Source: Minisyncoccia bacterium
GTDB lineage: Bacteria > Patescibacteriota > Minisyncoccia > Phycocordibacterales > GWA1-40-21
NCBI GenBank assembly: GCA_044346845.1
Contig: JBIIYK010000001.1
Location: 1-58,041, forward strand
Direction of reading: 5' to 3'
DNA: 58,041 bases
Part shown: positions 2,728 through 35,816 of the stretch, one piece after another
How positions within the stretch are numbered: position 1 is the first letter of the stretch
Layout: the number at the start of each line of letters is the position of its first letter
Notes under the pieces: generated by a model
What the model saw: the letters and a program-made list of their open reading frames with translations, nothing else
What the model was told of the DNA's origin: nothing
Databases searched by the model: none
Program-made: the position numbers and the translations under genes

Positions 2728-5700
2728 ATGAATGCTTTAAAAGATGAGAATGGACTTTCCATTAAAATTAAGAAAAAAGCTCAAGACCTGGGGGAAAAGG
2801 TTCTGATAGTGTCTAAACCAGAAAAAGCCAAAAACTTTTTGTCTCTGATTAAAAGAGACGCTGTTCAAACTAAGAAAACATATAATAAGCTCATTGGTCA
2901 GGTTAAAATCTATAAGCACTTAACTCATGAGGTTGAAAGTATTTTTGATAATTATTATATAGTAGATAGCGCTATTTCTGATATCTTAAACACAGATGTT
3001 GGGAAAGGTTTTAAAAATCTAGTTCAGTTTGAAAAAAAACCAGATATTTTTATCCCTAGAATGCATTTTATTCTTTCTGAACTGCTAAAAGTAACTGAAT
3101 ATAAAATAGATCGTGAGTCATTATATTTGTTTTTACGTATTTATCAGACTAAGGCTCATATTTCTATCAGAGAATTAAGTTTTGTTCCTTTTTTTCTCAG
3201 GATTATTTTAACTGAGAATATTGAACGGACGATGTATAAAACCGTAGCTTCTCTTAATGATTTTAAAGAGGCGGAATACTGGTTTGGTCAGATAGTAAAA
3301 AGAGGGGATGATAAAGGAAAAGATTATTCTAAAATTACTTCAGATCTGACTTTAAAGTATGGCGTCGTTCCAATTAATTTGGGCTTCTATCTTCTTCAGA
3401 GACTTTCTCAGTATGGTCCAGATACTAGACCGATAGTGAAATGGTTAAAGCTTAACTTGCTTAAGCAGGGTATTGATATTTCAGACTTGGCAGAGATAGA
3501 AAATAAACGTCAAAATGATATTTCAAATCAAATTTTTAATACAATAAACAGTTTACGTTGGATAAATCAAGTCCGTTGGGATGATTTTGTTGTTGATGTA
3601 AATATTGTAGATTCGTTTTTAATAAAAGATCCAACTGGTATTTACGCTTCTCTTGATCAGGCTAGTCAGAGTGCGTATAGAAATGAAGTTGTTAAGATAA
3701 GTGATCAGGCGGGAATTTATGAATCAGAAGTGGTTAAGGTTGCTTTGCGTTTATGTCAGCAGTCTTTAGCAGATAATAAACTCACAGATAATCCAGAGAA
3801 TCATGTTGGGTTTTATTTGGTTGGTGGCGGACGCGCAGAACTTGAAAAGAAAATAGGTTATCAAAAACCATTTTTAGAAAAATTACAGTCATTTGTTATA
3901 AAGAATTCTTCAATGGTTTATGTTAGCACTATTTTCTCAATCAACTTTATTTTGACGTTTATTTTCTTTACTTCTTTTACTTTACTCATTAATCAAACTA
4001 CCGCATTTTTTGTTCTAATTTTTCTAGCTTTTATAATTAATTGTGACGTGGCCATTAATTTAGTCAACATATTTATAAGTTCACTTATTCCTGTTAGGGC
4101 TTTGTTTCGTCTGGACCTTTCTTCTGGTGTATCGTTAAAACAAGCCACGTTTGTGGTTATACCGTCTATGTTTCGTGGCGGTAATGATGCATCCGCGTTA
4201 CTTAGGCGTCTTGAGGTAAATTTTTTAGGCAATAATGCTGAAAATGTTTATTTTGCTCTGCTTATGGATTTTAAAGATTCCAAGACAGAAAAAACTGTTT
4301 TTGATCAAAATTTAATTGATCAAATTTGCCTTGGAATAGAAGAATTAAATAATAAATATCCTGGAACGGTAAAAAAGTTTTACCTATTTTTTCGAAAAAG
4401 AGTTTGGAATCCTCAAGAGAATGTATTTATGGGCTGGGAGAGAAAGAGAGGAAAGCTTCGTGAGTTTAATCTCTTTTTACGAAATAAAAGAGAGACTTCG
4501 TATGTTGGAAGCTTGCCGGTTGATTTACCACATATTAAATACGTTCTTACTATTGATGAAGATACACGGTTACCAAAGGATTCTGCCATAAAACTTATCG
4601 GCTGTATTGATCACCCACTTAATCGGCCAGTAATTGATCTTTCTTCTGGTAGGGTAAAAAGTGGCTATGGAATAATCCAACCAAGAATGACTACTAAATT
4701 TAGTCAGGCTGGTGCCACACTCTTTTCTCGTCTATTTTCTTCTGCCGCTGGAATAGATTCTTACTCTGGACCAGTGGCTGACGTTTATCAAGATTTGTTT
4801 AATAACAGCATATTTTATGGTAAAGGTATTTATGACGTTGATGTTATGGAGGTTGTGATCGGGGACAGAATCCCAGAAAATCAAGTTTTAAGTCACGACC
4901 TACTTGAGGGTTTATATACCAGAGTTGGTTTTGCGACGGACATCTCATTGTTTGAGGGTTTTCCTGAAAGTTACAGGGAATATATTCTTAGAATGAATCG
5001 TTGGATTCGTGGTGATTGGCAGATTATTGGTTGGCTTAGCAATAATATTTCAAGGGGTAAGGGTTTCTCTCTAAGTGATAAATGGAAGATTTTTGATAAT
5101 TTACGTCGAAGTATTTTACCAATTTTTATTGTTTGTTTTGTCTTGTTTTCTTATTTAGTCTTCCCTGATTTATCTTTCTCTCCTATATTTTATGCTTTAT
5201 TAATAGTTGGTTCCCCTTTTATTATTTCGTATCTATTTAAACTATTGGAGTGGCCGAAAGAGATGAGTTTGTTTATGAAAATTAATAGCATTTTTAGTAA
5301 CTTGGGTTCAGTTATCTGGCAGACTCTATTTCGTTTTATTTTCATTCTAGATCAAGCTGTGACTTCGTTTGGGGCTGTTAGTGTTTCTATGTTTAGAATG
5401 GTTTTTAGTCGGAAACATATGTTGCTCTGGCAAAATTCACATGAGGTTTCAAAGAGTTTACGTGGTTCGTTAGACGAGTTTATTTATATTATGTGGTCAA
5501 CGCAAATCATCTCACTGATTGGCTTGTTTGTTGTTTTTAATCCTGAAGGTTTTTTTCTTCACTTAACGTTAATTTTGTGGTTTTTTTCTCCTCTCTTTGC
5601 TTATGGAATAAGTCAAAAAGAAAAAGCATATCAGCACAAAGTTCATGATCTAAAACTTTTAAGAAAAATCGCCTGTCGTTCCTCTAGATTTTTTTTGGAA

Positions 5701-32320: not shown

Positions 32321-32362
32321 ATGGCGCTTCAGTGTATTATTTTATTAATTATTATCCTATGA
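32321..32362 (+). CDS. possible leaderless 13-aa hydrophobic uORF (MALQCIILLIIIL) coupled to the kinase
   Basis: The ATG lies 7 nt after the -10 box. Its TGA stop (32360-32362) overlaps the kinase ATG (32359-32361) as ATGA. Confidence 0.3.
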   Translation: MALQCIILLIIIL

Positions 32363-33915
32363 CCAGAGAATTCAAGCAGAAGACATCGTTAAAATATAAA
32401 TTACTTTTAGGTTTTATTCCGGTTGTTATATTTTTATGTTTATTTGTTTTTTACGCCATATCTTTAAACAACAATATAAATTCTTCTTTTTCAAGAATAA
32501 ATAACAGTTTCAACCATCTTACAGATATTTCAAACTTGAGTAATACTGTAAAGAGCCTTTCTGAAGTTGCTAAAGCTTATGTAAACACTAATGATTCAGG
32601 TTGGGAAAAGCAATATAATGATCTTTTGTTTATTTTAAACAAATCATTAGAGGAGTCCCTTGCCTCAGAGAGTTCTAAGGAGGGCAGGTCGGCTTTAGAG
32701 GAATTTAAGAAGATAACAAATAGCACACAAAAAACTGAACTCTCGGCCATTCAAGGGGTTAAAACCGGAGATTCTAATGGAGCAAAATATCTTTTTGATT
32801 CTAGATATGCTAATGATATCCTCTTATCTTCCAAATTACTTTATACTTTTATAAATGCGGAAAGTGATAATGTTTCTCATGAGATTGGTATAAATCAAAA
32901 TTATTTAGTTATACAGATTGTGTTGTTTATTTCTTTTGCTGTTTTATTTTTATTTATCACTCTCCTTATCATAGTTAGATTGCTAAACGGAAATATTTTA
33001 CAACCGCTAGAAAAATTAGCTGAGACAGCTAAAGTCATTGCTGATGGGAATATGTCTTCACGTGCGGAAATTGTTAATTTGGATGAAGTGGGAAGTCTTG
33101 CCAATGATTTTAATGTTATGGTTGCCAGGCTTGAATCCTCACACGCGGTTCTTAGTATGACGGTAGATGACTTGAGTAAGGCCAATAAAGAATTGAAAAA
33201 AATAGATAAGATGAAGTCTGATTTTGTTACTATAGCCGCTCATCAGCTAAGAACCCCTTTGACGGGTATAAAGTGGTCTCTGACGGCTATATTAAATGGT
33301 GACATGGGACCAATTGGTGATAACCAAAAAGAATACTTGAAAGGGGCGGTAGAAAGCAATGAGAGAATGATAAATACCGTAGAGCAGATTTTAAAAATGG
33401 ATAATCTCCAGGCTGGTATTATAGAAATTAAAGATGATTATACGGATTTAGTAATTACTTTGAACAGCGTTCTTTTTGATATTTACCCGCAAGCTGCCAG
33501 AAAAAAAATAAAATTAAATTTAAATTTTGATAAAAAGGAAAAATTAATGGTTAATATAGATCAAGAATCATTAAGAGTGGTGCTGCAAAATTTACTTGAA
33601 AATAGTGTGTTGTATTCAAATGAAAAAGAAAATATTAATGTTACTCTTAAGAAGGAGGAGGGGAGAGTTATATTTTCAGTTTCAGACTTTGGTATCGGGA
33701 TTCCCGAGGGTGAGAAGAAAAATATTTTTACTAAATTTTTCAGAGCCACTAATGCCATCAAATATTATGCCAACGGTTCTGGTCTTGGGCTCGTTGTTTC
33801 TAAAAATATTGTAGATAGGCATGGAGGAAAAATGTGGTTTGAGAGTAAAGAGGGGGCGGGAACCACGTTTTTTGTCTCTTTGCCAACGGAAGAATGGGTC
33901 AAGCCAAAAAAGTGA
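32359..33915 (+). CDS. sensor histidine kinase with extracytoplasmic region, HAMP linker and HisKA/HATPase core
   Basis: Two TM segments, a HAMP-like region, H-box AAHQLRTPLTGI, and N/G boxes NSVLYSN, DFGIGI and GSGLGL. A GTG at 32332 is an alternative start. Confidence 0.8.
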   Translation: MTREFKQKTSLKYKLLLGFIPVVIFLCLFVFYAISLNNNINSSFSRINNSFNHLTDISNLSNTVKSLSEVAKAYVNTNDSGWEKQYNDLLFILNKSLEESLASESSKEGRSALEEFKKITNSTQKTELSAIQGVKTGDSNGAKYLFDSRYANDILLSSKLLYTFINAESDNVSHEIGINQNYLVIQIVLFISFAVLFLFITLLIIVRLLNGNILQPLEKLAETAKVIADGNMSSRAEIVNLDEVGSLANDFNVMVARLESSHAVLSMTVDDLSKANKELKKIDKMKSDFVTIAAHQLRTPLTGIKWSLTAILNGDMGPIGDNQKEYLKGAVESNERMINTVEQILKMDNLQAGIIEIKDDYTDLVITLNSVLFDIYPQAARKKIKLNLNFDKKEKLMVNIDQESLRVVLQNLLENSVLYSNEKENINVTLKKEEGRVIFSVSDFGIGIPEGEKKNIFTKFFRATNAIKYYANGSGLGLVVSKNIVDRHGGKMWFESKEGAGTTFFVSLPTEEWVKPKK

Positions 33916-33931: not shown

Positions 33932-33959
33932 TTGACTTTCCAGTATTATTTGCTATAGT
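33932..33959 (+). promoter_or_regulatory. sigma70 promoter TTGACT-N16-TGCTATAGT of the GC-rich two-gene operon
   Basis: TTGACT at 33932-33937 and TGcTATAGT at 33951-33959. Confidence 0.6.
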
Positions 33960-33975
33960 TTTAAGAGAAACGGAA

Positions 33976-33997
33976 GGAGGTAAGTAACCTCCTTTTT
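33976..33997 (+). promoter_or_regulatory. leader hairpin plus T-run (attenuator-like) just downstream of the promoter
   Basis: GGAGGT-AAGTA-ACCTCC followed by TTTTT. The stem buries an SD-like GGAGG. Confidence 0.45.
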
Positions 33998-34031
33998 GGT
34001 TGGTTTTTGACAACAGAGAAAGGAAAGTGTT

Positions 34032-34409
34032 ATGAAGAGTACTGAAAACGGTAGTGTGAAGCAGGTGGTTTGGGGTATCTCTATTTTGTTTGTGGTATTT
34101 TTTGGGTCACTTTTTGCGCTTGAGGTTTGCGTTAAGGTGGATCCGTTACCGCCCGATACAGTTACTAAAACTGTGGCGGTCACGAACCAGGTCGCAAATA
34201 CGAATGGTTTGGATGAGGTGGTTCACCGGAATACTGCTTCGGGGTATCAAGGTGGCCGGGTGATGGTCATAGCCGATCTATCTTCAGCCTTAAATTTAGC
34301 CAAGAGGAAATCCTCGGAGGCTGATCGAAGGGCGAGGAATGGAGAAGGTGATGATGCTTTTAATTTCAAAACAGAGGAGGTGTTCTCAAGTTCAAGTACG
34401 AATCAGTAA
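34032..34409 (+). CDS. GC-rich signal-anchored protein of unknown function
   Basis: 125 aa. TM segment VVWGISILFVVFFGSLFAL. Purine-rich SD-like AAAGGAAAG upstream. Confidence 0.5.
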   Translation: MKSTENGSVKQVVWGISILFVVFFGSLFALEVCVKVDPLPPDTVTKTVAVTNQVANTNGLDEVVHRNTASGYQGGRVMVIADLSSALNLAKRKSSEADRRARNGEGDDAFNFKTEEVFSSSSTNQ

Positions 34410-34465
34410 TGGGTTGGGGTGGAAAGATTTAGAATGGAAGATTAAAAAAACAAAGGGAGATACGA

Positions 34466-35488
34466 ATGAAGAAGATTGTGATGGCGATGCTGTTGGTTCT
34501 TGGTTTGGTTCAAGCGGGCCTGGCCCTGACGGAAGAACAGCGCTATCGGCGCTACGTGGTGTCCGCGATCGAGGAGGTCATTAACGGTGGTGCCTTGAAG
34601 GGGCAAATCTACGAATCAATCCCGGGCCAGAACTGGCCTCAGGAACCGAAGATGATCTCCTTCGGTGACTACTTCAAGAACGGGAGGGCCCAGGCTTTGA
34701 TGGACTGCGATGTGAGCTGGTATCAAGGTTGGGCGACTTGGAATAATTTGTCCAACGTACGGCTTTTTAGAAGTCAGTACATGGAGCAAACCTACATTAG
34801 CGCCGGCCTGCAAACAATGCCATTCATTATGAAGGTTGAGTCCGCTCGACTGATGAAGTTGAATGTACAAGGAGCTCTTCTTAATGATGGTGATGAACTT
34901 TGGTTTAACGGTGCGCGAGTTTATCAGAACGAAGCGGGCATCTGGCAGGTCTATGCCTACAAACCCTGGAACCTCATTGGCGCGGAAGTTGAAGTGGTTT
35001 GGACTGGGCGCGGTGGCTGGAGGATTCAAATGGATGAAAATTCATTTAGCGGGGTCATTAACTTGAATACCGCCCTCATGGATCAGACCCTCTTGGCCCC
35101 GACCAAGCTCAAGGCCATTTCATTCCTTGCCGAAGGTTCGGAATTGGAAGAAGGATTGGTGCGGTATACCGGCCGATCCTATGATGCGGATCTGGGATGT
35201 ACGGTGCTGAACTTGCAGTCCTTGTTCGATAAGGACATGAAGGAATTCACTTTGGTCCTGCGTGGTTTGGATGAACAATCCGGCCAGATGGTGAACTACT
35301 ACACCGTCTGCCTGCAGGATGTGGGCGATGACTTCATGGTGCCCTTGGGCGATACATATATTCGCCCGTGGACCGAAGTGAAGGTTTACCTCATGGATCC
35401 CCGGACTGGCGACTACATGCAGAAACGGCTGGATGCCCAGGATCTGTGGCGGGACGTGCCGGTGAACGTTGTGACCCCCATGAAGTAA
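34466..35488 (+). CDS. GC-rich secreted protein of unknown function
   Basis: 340 aa. Cleavable-type signal peptide MKKIVMAMLLVLGLVQAGLA. SD AGGGAG 7 nt upstream. Hand count gives 62% GC at 34501-34560. Confidence 0.7.
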   Translation: MKKIVMAMLLVLGLVQAGLALTEEQRYRRYVVSAIEEVINGGALKGQIYESIPGQNWPQEPKMISFGDYFKNGRAQALMDCDVSWYQGWATWNNLSNVRLFRSQYMEQTYISAGLQTMPFIMKVESARLMKLNVQGALLNDGDELWFNGARVYQNEAGIWQVYAYKPWNLIGAEVEVVWTGRGGWRIQMDENSFSGVINLNTALMDQTLLAPTKLKAISFLAEGSELEEGLVRYTGRSYDADLGCTVLNLQSLFDKDMKEFTLVLRGLDEQSGQMVNYYTVCLQDVGDDFMVPLGDTYIRPWTEVKVYLMDPRTGDYMQKRLDAQDLWRDVPVNVVTPMK

Positions 35489-35522
35489 CGTCCTTTCTCG
35501 ATGAGTTGAACAGAAGCAGTGT

Positions 35523-35562
35523 GACGGTCGGGGATTTGTGAGATCCCTGGCCGTCTTTTTTT
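35523..35562 (+). terminator. intrinsic terminator of the GC-rich operon
   Basis: 13-bp stem GACGGTCGGGGAT/GATCCCTGGCCGTC followed by TTTTTTT. Confidence 0.8.
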
Positions 35563-35577
35563 GTCTAAATTTTAAGG

Positions 35578-35606
35578 TTGCAAAATAATCAGTTTTGTAT
35601 TATACT
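35578..35606 (+). promoter_or_regulatory. sigma70 promoter TTGCAA-N17-TATACT for rpmG
   Basis: Consensus-like hexamers at optimal spacing. Confidence 0.55.
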
Positions 35607-35657
35607 CTCTGCACGTTTGGGAATTTCATATTTTCAGATTTAATATAAATTTAAACC

Positions 35658-35816
35658 ATGTCACAAGTACAATTAATCAAATTAGCCTGCAAAACCTGCA
35701 AGAGAACTAATTATTATTCTAGAAAGAATAAAAAGAAAGTTGAACGCAAGATCGAGCTTAAAAAATTCTGTAAATGGTGTAAGAAAAATACCGTTCATAA
35801 GGAATCTAAGAAATAA
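35658..35816 (+). CDS. rpmG: 50S ribosomal protein L33
   Basis: My own translation: MSQVQLIKLACKTCKRTNYYSRKNKKKVERKIELKKFCKWCKKNTVHKESKK (52 aa, below the track cutoff). It has the CxxC...CxxC zinc ribbon typical of L33. Confidence 0.85.
   Translation: MSQVQLIKLACKTCKRTNYYSRKNKKKVERKIELKKFCKWCKKNTVHKESKK

Follow-up and report, generated by a model that had tools for sequence, protein, structure and literature searches.

What accounts for a pair of GC-rich genes, each with a Shine-Dalgarno (SD)-like start signal, in a GC-poor genome of the Candidate Phyla Radiation (CPR, or Patescibacteria)? The locus, here termed the islet, occupies positions 33932-35562 of the forward strand of a 58,041-nucleotide (nt) window, which is positions 1 to 58,041 of contig JBIIYK010000001.1 (assembly GCA_044346845.1) of a Minisyncoccia bacterium (GTDB lineage Bacteria; Patescibacteriota; Minisyncoccia; Phycocordibacterales; GWA1-40-21). 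It holds two open reading frames (ORFs): ORF1, predicted to encode a small membrane-anchored protein, and ORF2, predicted to encode a secreted protein. CPR bacteria live attached to other cells, and almost nothing is known of their surface proteins. An initial annotation took the islet to have come recently from a donor of higher GC, which could be the host. Comparison with related genomes points elsewhere, and we consider it moderately probable that the islet is an old resident: a lineage-specific, self-contained operon whose fixed expression slot immediately precedes the rpmG promoter.

The window is contig C9 of the source genome, G000, an assembly of 591,824 bp in 54 contigs (in the comparisons below, genomes have G codes, loci or contigs L codes, and contigs C codes). 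The compositional jump described in the initial annotation is genuine, although smaller than claimed: The islet is 49.0% GC and the whole assembly 36.8%, and GC content at third codon positions (GC3) is 0.66 in ORF2 compared with a mean of 0.316. A proposed islet GC of 55%-60% was an overestimate (46%-52% by ORF), whereas a hand count of 62% at 34501-34560 was accurate (0.617). The 33% GC given for the surroundings applies to the immediate neighbor genes (29%-33%), not to the genome. The most GC-rich 1500-bp window of the 592-kb assembly falls in the islet (0.498 vs. a mean of 0.368, standard deviation 0.025), and by GC3 (0.659) ORF2 ranks second among the 525 ORFs of at least 100 amino acids (aa; mean 0.316, standard deviation 0.064). 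With values of 0.55, 0.36, and 0.66 at the three codon positions of ORF2, the excess is synonymous. It is also limited to coding sequence: GC is 0.29 in the promoter, 0.38 in the leader, 0.38 in the spacer between ORF1 and ORF2, and 0.24 in the stretch from the terminator to rpmG. The neighbors are a HAMP histidine kinase gene, rpmG (ribosomal protein L33), tRNA-Trp, miaA, tRNA-Leu, and parB. A blastn search of the islet against the whole G000 assembly returned only the islet itself, with no second copy.

Could the islet be a product of chimeric assembly, as was feared at the outset? Five contigs with identical ORF2, drawn from five samples and three sources (ENA, Logan, and JGI), are colinear with the window and gapless at ≥99.95% identity, and three of them span both islet boundaries. 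Chimeric assembly of the islet is excluded. Among the five samples there are no single nucleotide polymorphisms (SNPs) in the islet.

The case for age comes from the same locus in relatives. ORF2 belongs to a small protein family (five clusters among 5.8 billion sequences, and 15 representatives among 1.84 billion). Where its homologs have DNA context, a small transmembrane-anchored ORF precedes them and rpmG, miaA, or parB adjoins. The order small ORF, ~340-aa ORF, L33, and miaA/parB is found on contigs at 77%, 47%, and 43% identity, and also in G041 and G037. In related low-GC genomes, the homologs at this locus are equally GC-rich at 43%-48% amino acid identity, and in every member of the family GC3 is 0.48-0.70 compared with 0.28-0.34 in flanking ORFs. 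The homologs are 41%-55% identical to one another, with the exception of one 77% pair. At fourfold degenerate sites of conserved residues, identity is 0.23-0.41, against 0.25-0.29 expected from independent draws. Identity is thus near chance, which indicates that third positions have turned over completely. Despite this saturation, GC at fourfold sites (GC4) is still 0.6-0.78 in most lineages.

Nor did we find an outside donor. No ORF2 homolog was detected beyond this bacterial family among ~15 billion proteins, in 400 other genomes sampled across the class, or in IMG/VR viral contigs, GenBank phages, and PLSDB plasmids; every one of the 15+4 family representatives for which context is visible is on a low-GC CPR contig. 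The 20-kb neighborhood of the islet contains no integrase, transposase, or recombinase gene, and a search for flanking direct or att-like repeats found only short repeats at chance level. A phage context is not seen either, the neighbors being the histidine kinase gene, rpmG, tRNA-Trp, miaA, and parB, and no phage match was found. Two other kinds of element were considered and rejected: a diversity-generating retroelement target (blastn of the islet against the assembly found no template repeat), and an integron-type cassette (there is no integrase nearby, and the conserved ends are a promoter with leader and a terminator, not attC-like palindromes at both ends). The initial annotation had itself stated that high-GC homologs at this locus in related low-GC genomes would speak against recent acquisition, and such occupancy is what the genus shows (at least 12 of 16 species). 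With equally GC-rich homologs at the same locus, saturated synonymous sites, and no outside donor, the proposal of recent import from a GC-richer organism does not stand.

Occupancy of the slot extends beyond the ORF2 family. In addition to the species of the genus just mentioned, both genomes of a second genus (g4) have the slot filled. In G032 and G029, from which the ORF2 family is missing, a small transmembrane-anchored ORF and a 344-353-aa signal-peptide protein stand at the same place upstream of rpmG, with GC of ~0.54 and GC3 of 0.63-0.70. We refer to these units as type-2 cassettes, and to those with ORF2-family proteins as type 1. The large type-2 proteins form a small family of their own, and hhalign did not show homology between the two types (probabilities of 3%, 0.3%, and 1.8%, and 17.5% with a six-member type-2 profile). 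In G030 and G039, the rpmG promoter is immediately preceded by GC-rich DNA with a GC-rich terminator at its end. Among the readable rpmG-upstream sites, that of G028 alone is clearly empty: It has a clean site at 0.30-0.35 GC, with rpsU, ybeY, ftsA, and ftsZ upstream of rpmG. The 3' ends (terminator and rpmG promoter) are conserved and the left flank is variable, the histidine kinase gene being a nonorthologous neighbor in most genomes. The content of the slot also varies in number of genes. A G037-like contig has a third GC-rich ORF ahead of the pair (L039 237-584; 115 aa, signal peptide, GC3 0.79), and in G034 the large ORF follows a pair of small transmembrane ORFs, so the slot can hold additional small genes. 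Separately, G032 (L029 2308-4020) carries a second GC-rich block (0.50-0.62) ~1 kb upstream of its cassette, comprising ORFs of 135 aa (secreted) and 387 aa (by eye resembling a calcineurin-type phosphoesterase); a low-GC 162-aa ORF lies between this block and the cassette.

Both protein types, in two genera, have a common upstream control region. Its conserved order is promoter, TAGAG-like box, hairpin of 7-10 bp, T-run, TTGACAACTCAA...AAGAAA box, SD-like motif, and start codon. The hairpin has an A-tract/purine 5' arm and a pyrimidine/U-tract 3' arm, and it folds in all eight leaders tested. In an alignment in which two sequences are out of register owing to different loop lengths, 89% of cells are paired, four of the eight pairs have changed on both sides, and none of 500 shuffles reaches the observed covariation score. 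A covariance model of the leader (R1) locates a single site in each of 10 of the 16 genomes of the genus and in each of the two g4 genomes. At the five matches beyond the training set (G044, G027, G034, G033, and G040), the same promoter precedes the leader, and one or two small transmembrane ORFs and a 325-369-aa secreted ORF (GC3 0.58-0.71) follow it; the large ORFs there have an aromatic and Gly-rich C-terminal tail. Matches in G007, G025, and G050 have neither promoter nor cassette and were taken as false. The possibility that the promoter and leader are a dispersed repeat in G000 was also rejected, the leader occurring once in the genome.

The individual parts of the cassette can be read directly from the window, all on the forward strand. 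The initial annotation had recognized a consensus-like promoter, and a consensus scan agrees (33932..33959; TTGACT, a 16-nt spacer, and an extended -10 element TGcTATAGT; 10 of 12 positions). A near-identical promoter, cTATTGACTTTTT-N12-TTTGCTATAcT, precedes every related cassette. The conserved 5' leader (33961..34029, from the match to R1) contains the TAGAG-like box, a terminator-like hairpin (33972-33996), the T-run, a TTGACAAC box (34007-34014), and the SD-like AGGAAAG (34021-34027). The hairpin, in which an A-tract/GGAGG arm pairs with a CCUCCUUUU arm, had been described as burying GGAGG; the hairpin is present, but this GGAGG is ~50 nt upstream of the ORF1 start and is thus not the ribosome-binding site of ORF1. 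ORF1 (34032..34409; 125 aa, GC 0.46, GC3 0.46) is followed by the SD-like AGGGAG (34454..34459), 6 nt 5' of the ATG of ORF2 (34466..35488; 340 aa, signal peptide, GC 0.52, GC3 0.66), so that SD-like motifs do precede both start codons, as had been proposed. The closing GC terminator is likewise present, with a stem of 15 pairs (eight of them G-C; 35523-35555) rather than 13, followed by a T-run (35523..35562 in all). Terminators of related cassettes of both protein types have the same CGG..GGGG...CCC..CCG design, and type-1 cassettes (35489-35522 here; L002, L035, and L036) have in common a motif between stop codon and terminator, TTTCTYGWTGA..GTTGAA. On these predicted signals the unit is autonomous, with its own promoter and its own terminator bracketing both genes. 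To its right, the rpmG promoter (TTGCAA-17-TATACT) and rpmG (35578..35816) form an anchor that is kept in all relatives, including the empty site of G028. To its left is a histidine kinase gene with HAMP, HisKA, and HATPase domains (32332..33915; 33% GC), which is nonorthologous in most relatives.

In the proposed mechanism, the leader hairpin would gate or stabilize the transcript. A conserved, covarying hairpin and U-run between promoter and first start codon is the arrangement expected of an attenuator, and we lean slightly toward a role as attenuator or insulator over one as 5' stabilizer. Inspection of the leader identified no alternative (antiterminator) pairing, and an Rfam scan of it matched no family. 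In G000, the 3' arm of the hairpin (ACCUCCUUU) equals the canonical bacterial 16S anti-SD tail and the 5' arm is GGAGGU (33972-33996); in relatives the arms are purine-rich and pyrimidine-rich yet less SD-like. Immediately upstream of the G041 cassette (L009/L035 4247-5364; JGI contig of P0003) are genes for a histidine kinase and a stand-alone receiver domain, and the G000 cassette adjoins a different histidine kinase gene. These kinases may hint at two-component control of the cassettes, or their presence may be coincidence.

The start signals set the islet apart from the core of the genome. Core genes have plain A/T-rich upstream regions without SD, whereas AGGAAAG, AGGGAG, or AAGGAG stands upstream of ORF1, ORF2, and two further GC-rich cassette genes in the window. 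The contrast in start signals that the initial annotation drew, islet genes with SD and native genes without, is borne out across the genome: An SD-like motif at canonical spacing precedes 22 of the 33 ORFs with GC3 > 0.44 and 52 of the 492 others (odds ratio 17, p = 6e-13). The motif is positioned, being found at -16..-5 in 40% of GC3-high ORFs and at other upstream offsets in 0%-10%; in ordinary ORFs it is depleted at -16..-5 (2% vs. 4%-9% at other offsets). In all 15 cassettes, of both types, the large ORF is preceded at a distance of 5-10 nt by a purine-rich SD-like motif. The same genome-wide comparison in G027, a GC-richer genome (mean GC3 0.49), gave little information, with only two outlier ORFs, though both are SD-led. 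In G000, ~30 further ORFs with GC3 > 0.44, most of them with canonical SD-like motifs, make up a dispersed class of GC-rich, SD-led genes (e.g., C24:3572-4165, C13:2450-3028, C14:3956-4375, C23:10189-10566, C53:5662-6174, C54:13512-14993, and C43:796-1236). By eye, the class includes a HIT-like protein, a NUDIX-like protein, and several small transmembrane or secreted proteins.

These motifs occur in a lineage whose ribosomes probably cannot pair with them. Both 16S rRNA genes recovered in the genus, from G027, which has a cassette, and from G028, the closest species, lack CCUCC after helix 45 and end ...GTCGTAACAAGGCACGGGTAGCGGAAGCTGYTCGTGGAWTTTTCAAATTG (3' tail GGAWTTTTCAAATTG; L068 [G027:C2] 3093-3141 and L069 [G028:C3] ~4013-4070). 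In G028, the Rfam match stops ~1 kb short of the helix-45 anchor, suggesting that a large insertion lies close to the 16S 3' end. Ribosomal protein uL1 (PF00687) was not found in G000. Tsurumaki et al. (2022) (RNA 28:1041; PMC9297842) report anti-SD loss in a subgroup of Parcubacteria that overlaps the uL1-less group, and the depleted SD and missing uL1 of G000 fit that subgroup, so that G000 is probably a parcubacterium. The islet would then be a member of a class of GC-rich, SD-led accessory cassettes of anti-SD-less Parcubacteria. CsrA, considered as a reader of GGA motifs, was rejected because no CsrA gene was found in G000.

Along with the start signals goes a distinct codon usage. Compared with the genome, ORF2 encodes Lys by AAG (87% vs. 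31%), Arg by CGG (35% vs. 6%), and Phe by TTC (70% vs. 17%), and it does not use TTA for Leu (0% vs. 34%). The same third-position profile is found in all lineages and both types (A3 of 0.10-0.20, TTA and AGA avoided, CGG 35%-50% of Arg), and cassette GC3 (0.58-0.70) is unrelated to that of the host flanks (0.30-0.54). Among the 31 tRNAs that ARAGORN finds in G000 (a 90%-complete assembly), the only tRNA-Arg anticodons are tct and gcg, and CGG makes up 35%-50% of Arg codons in nearly all cassettes. Translational optimization was rejected as the cause of this usage: The genes for EF-Tu, EF-G, RpoC, and enolase have GC3 of 0.28-0.36. The idea that all secreted proteins are GC3-rich was rejected as well, signal- or anchor-like ORFs having a mean GC3 of 0.301 compared with 0.319 for those without a hydrophobic segment.

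As for the products, the initial annotation had proposed a signal-anchored and a secreted protein, neither with a recognizable domain, as candidates for the cell surface. Each part of this description holds at the level of prediction. Pfam and NCBIfam scans found no domain in ORF1 or ORF2; ORF1 has an N-terminal hydrophobic anchor and ORF2 a signal-peptide-like segment, and these, with the structural model, predict that the products are exported or surface-located. ORF1 and its homologs have a common plan: N-terminal signal anchor, variable linker, and conserved C-terminal motif ..ADL..AL..AK..EA..A..G..FNF..E. Lys residues ahead of the anchor suggest, by the positive-inside rule, an N-in/C-out topology. 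Mature ORF2 (36.7 kDa, pI 4.7, with 11 Trp and 17 Tyr) has a predicted Sec-type signal peptide, with cleavage predicted at ..AGLA|LTEE... Certain Trp, Gly, and Pro residues are invariant across its family, whose members usually end ...LWY...GG(K/R)G. An AlphaFold2 model built from eight sequences (predicted local distance difference test [pLDDT] 67, predicted template modeling score [pTM] 0.54) consists of an N-terminal helix and two beta-sandwich domains, with block means mostly of 72-90 for residues 21-210. Foldseek searches of this model against PDB and BFVD returned only generic Ig/FN3/macroglobulin-like neighbors (TM-score ≤ 0.21). Matches to parvovirus capsids in a sequence-profile search of PDB (~20 bits) were taken as chance.

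We suggest that ORF2 would be an acidic tandem beta-sandwich protein, exported through Sec, that serves at the cell surface in binding, adhesion, or formation of a coat. ORF1 would be its membrane partner, anchored with N-in/C-out topology, and the conserved C-terminal helix of ORF1, outside the cell, would hold or assemble ORF2. ORF2 does have several traits of an S-layer or major surface protein (predicted export, pI of 4.7, 43%-55% interspecies identity, and unrelated types at one site), and the Pfam and NCBIfam scans found no S-layer anchoring or lattice domain (SLH, CWB2, etc.) in the islet proteins. Both unrelated protein types usually end in an aromatic stretch and a Gly-rich tail with Lys or Arg (..LWY..GGKG and ..DYYGxGKG); the C terminus of G000 ORF2 differs (..VVTPMK). 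The tail may be a sorting or attachment signal.

How, then, should the history of the islet be read? Several observations weigh against an old resident operon as set out above. The distribution is patchy: The ORF2 family proper is present in only four of the 16 genus members, and the closest species by MiaA, G028, lacks the cassette. The MiaA tree has one fully supported split (100/100), with both cassette types represented on either side. Between genomes, ORF2 identity (0.43-0.55) does not track that of MiaA (0.58-0.75), to the extent that the genome pair closest in MiaA is the most distant in ORF2. The distribution of types and this decoupling are at least as compatible with cassette exchange as with strict residency. 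ORF2 sequences give a star tree without resolution, for which vertical descent is not rejected (approximately unbiased [AU] test, p = 0.21); by the same token, exchange cannot be demonstrated by tree incongruence. Anti-SD loss in G000 itself, whose 16S gene is absent from the assembly, we infer from two congeners. Anti-SD-less cells are not known to have a reader for SD motifs, and the resident reading calls for a force that holds GC3 near 0.65, expression proxies being GC3-poor (EF-Tu 0.36, RpoC 0.28). The function given to the products depends on a signal peptide and a medium-confidence model with generic folds.

In a rival reading, the islet belongs to a pool of cassettes exchanged within the bacterial family and is a recombinase-less mobile unit with its own promoter, leader, and terminator that lands repeatedly upstream of rpmG, and whose GC-rich, SD-led make-up reflects the equilibrium of the pool or of an unsampled reservoir and not any one host. 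The patchy presence and clean empty site in the closest species, the two unrelated protein types on both sides of the MiaA split, the decoupled divergence of ORF2 and flanks, the independence of cassette composition from host GC, and the conserved ends around variable cargo are all in its favor, as is the report that Patescibacteria have abundant horizontal gene transfer, most of it within the phylum and not recent (Gios et al. 2025, mSystems; PMC12455944). We nevertheless consider it doubtful, though a real possibility. Each genome has a single copy, and wherever context is visible the site is the same; neither flanking direct repeats nor a recombinase was found; no near-identical copies are present in different species (all pairs are ≤55% identical save the one at 77%); the AU test does not reject vertical descent; and no reservoir was found in the collections searched (proteins, class genomes, phages, plasmids, and viral contigs). 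A pool limited to AT-rich, anti-SD-less hosts would, moreover, require some force that keeps GC3 and SD. We thus find more support for long residency, accompanied by rapid divergence and at times by loss or replacement, than for exchange, and the terminal branches of type 1 are ~3x those of the neighboring MiaA. Within-clade exchange is a serious rival all the same, and the two are not mutually exclusive. The composition would be maintained for the gene class by selection on mRNA or start signals, by within-clade exchange, or by both, and would not be the trace of a recent import.

The remaining explanations are progressively harder to accept. It is unlikely, in our view, that the operon and ~20-30 other GC-rich ORFs are long-term residents whose SD-like motif and GC-rich codons constitute a second dialect of expression, maintained separately, with the motif read by a noncanonical agent and the dialect gating synthesis of variable surface proteins; candidate readers would be an rRNA variant (specialized, or missing from the assembly), a protein, or the CCUCCUUU arm of the leader itself, which would serve as a switch. 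We also give little credence to a recombination hot spot, at which GC-biased gene conversion would raise GC3 locally through biased repair at a hypervariable surface-antigen locus. The locus is hypervariable with type polymorphism, and its GC3 excess is in nonoptimal GC-ending codons, which is the signature described for recombining bacterial genes (PMC4450053). Yet the excess ends sharply at coding boundaries, with promoter, leader, and spacer of genome-like GC; an increase of approximately 35 GC3 points looks, in our judgment, large for the mechanism; the ~30 dispersed ORFs with the same codon usage and SD motifs would be left unexplained; and the islet has no SNPs among the five samples. 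Recent, unameliorated acquisition from a GC-richer donor such as the host would account for the jump in composition, for starts led by SD motifs, for the unit having its own promoter and terminator, and for the absence from G028, but with equally GC-rich orthologs and saturated synonymous sites at the same locus, a slot occupied in most congeners and a second genus, a protein family confined to this bacterial family, and no match in phages, plasmids, or viral contigs, it is very improbable. Finally, only the sharp compositional boundaries suggest that a fragment of a GC-richer organism was joined into a CPR contig; this has a negligible chance of being correct in the face of colinear contigs from three pipelines, three of them spanning both junctions, and of the same architecture in more than 10 other genomes.

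The proposed long-resident operon has implications beyond this locus. Atypical GC and SD sites alone do not indicate recent transfer, and a gene class can retain a compositional set-point ~35 GC3 points higher than that of its genome even as its divergence becomes saturated. Conserved SD-like motifs coexist with 16S tails, both published and observed, that are unable to pair with them, so that translation start in anti-SD-less bacteria becomes directly testable on a small set of genes. The slot is also a concrete candidate for a surface module of ultra-small CPR bacteria, being genus-wide, predicted to be exported, fast-evolving, and provided with defined control parts.

In the literature, we found no description of such a conserved slot, nor of SD-led GC-rich genes in anti-SD-less genomes. 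One close published counterpart is the anti-SD-less Parcubacteria of Tsurumaki et al. (2022), with which the 16S genes without CCUCC of two congeners agree, as do the SD-less core genes of G000 and uL1 not being found there; the available part of that paper reports the loss without mention of a retained GC-rich, SD-led minority, which the islet exemplifies. The genomic islands of Patescibacteria (PMC12455944) are likewise compositionally deviant accessory segments in CPR genomes, whereas the islet has no donor, mobility gene, or att repeat and is conserved in position; a word search of that paper gave no occurrence of the term "Shine-Dalgarno." Phage morons, in the concept of Hendrix and Juhala, are self-contained promoter-gene-terminator units of deviant composition wedged between host genes, much as the islet is. 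The islet, however, is old, lies outside any prophage at a fixed chromosomal site across the genus, and has two genes and a conserved leader. O-antigen and capsule-type hypervariable loci offer another parallel, in conserved position and flanking signals, unrelated types in close relatives, atypical composition, and surface products (predicted here). Unlike those clusters, the islet consists of two small genes and is GC-richer rather than AT-richer, and exchange between lineages is not demonstrated for it (AU p = 0.21). The leader resembles those on mRNAs for abundant secreted or surface proteins, such as aprE and hag in B. subtilis and the 5' untranslated regions of S-layer genes, in which a strong promoter and a stable hairpin within ~10 nt of the inferred start precede a gene for an exported protein. 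In contrast to such stabilizers, the islet hairpin has the anatomy of a terminator (A-tract, stem, and U-run), and it could therefore attenuate the transcript rather than stabilize it.

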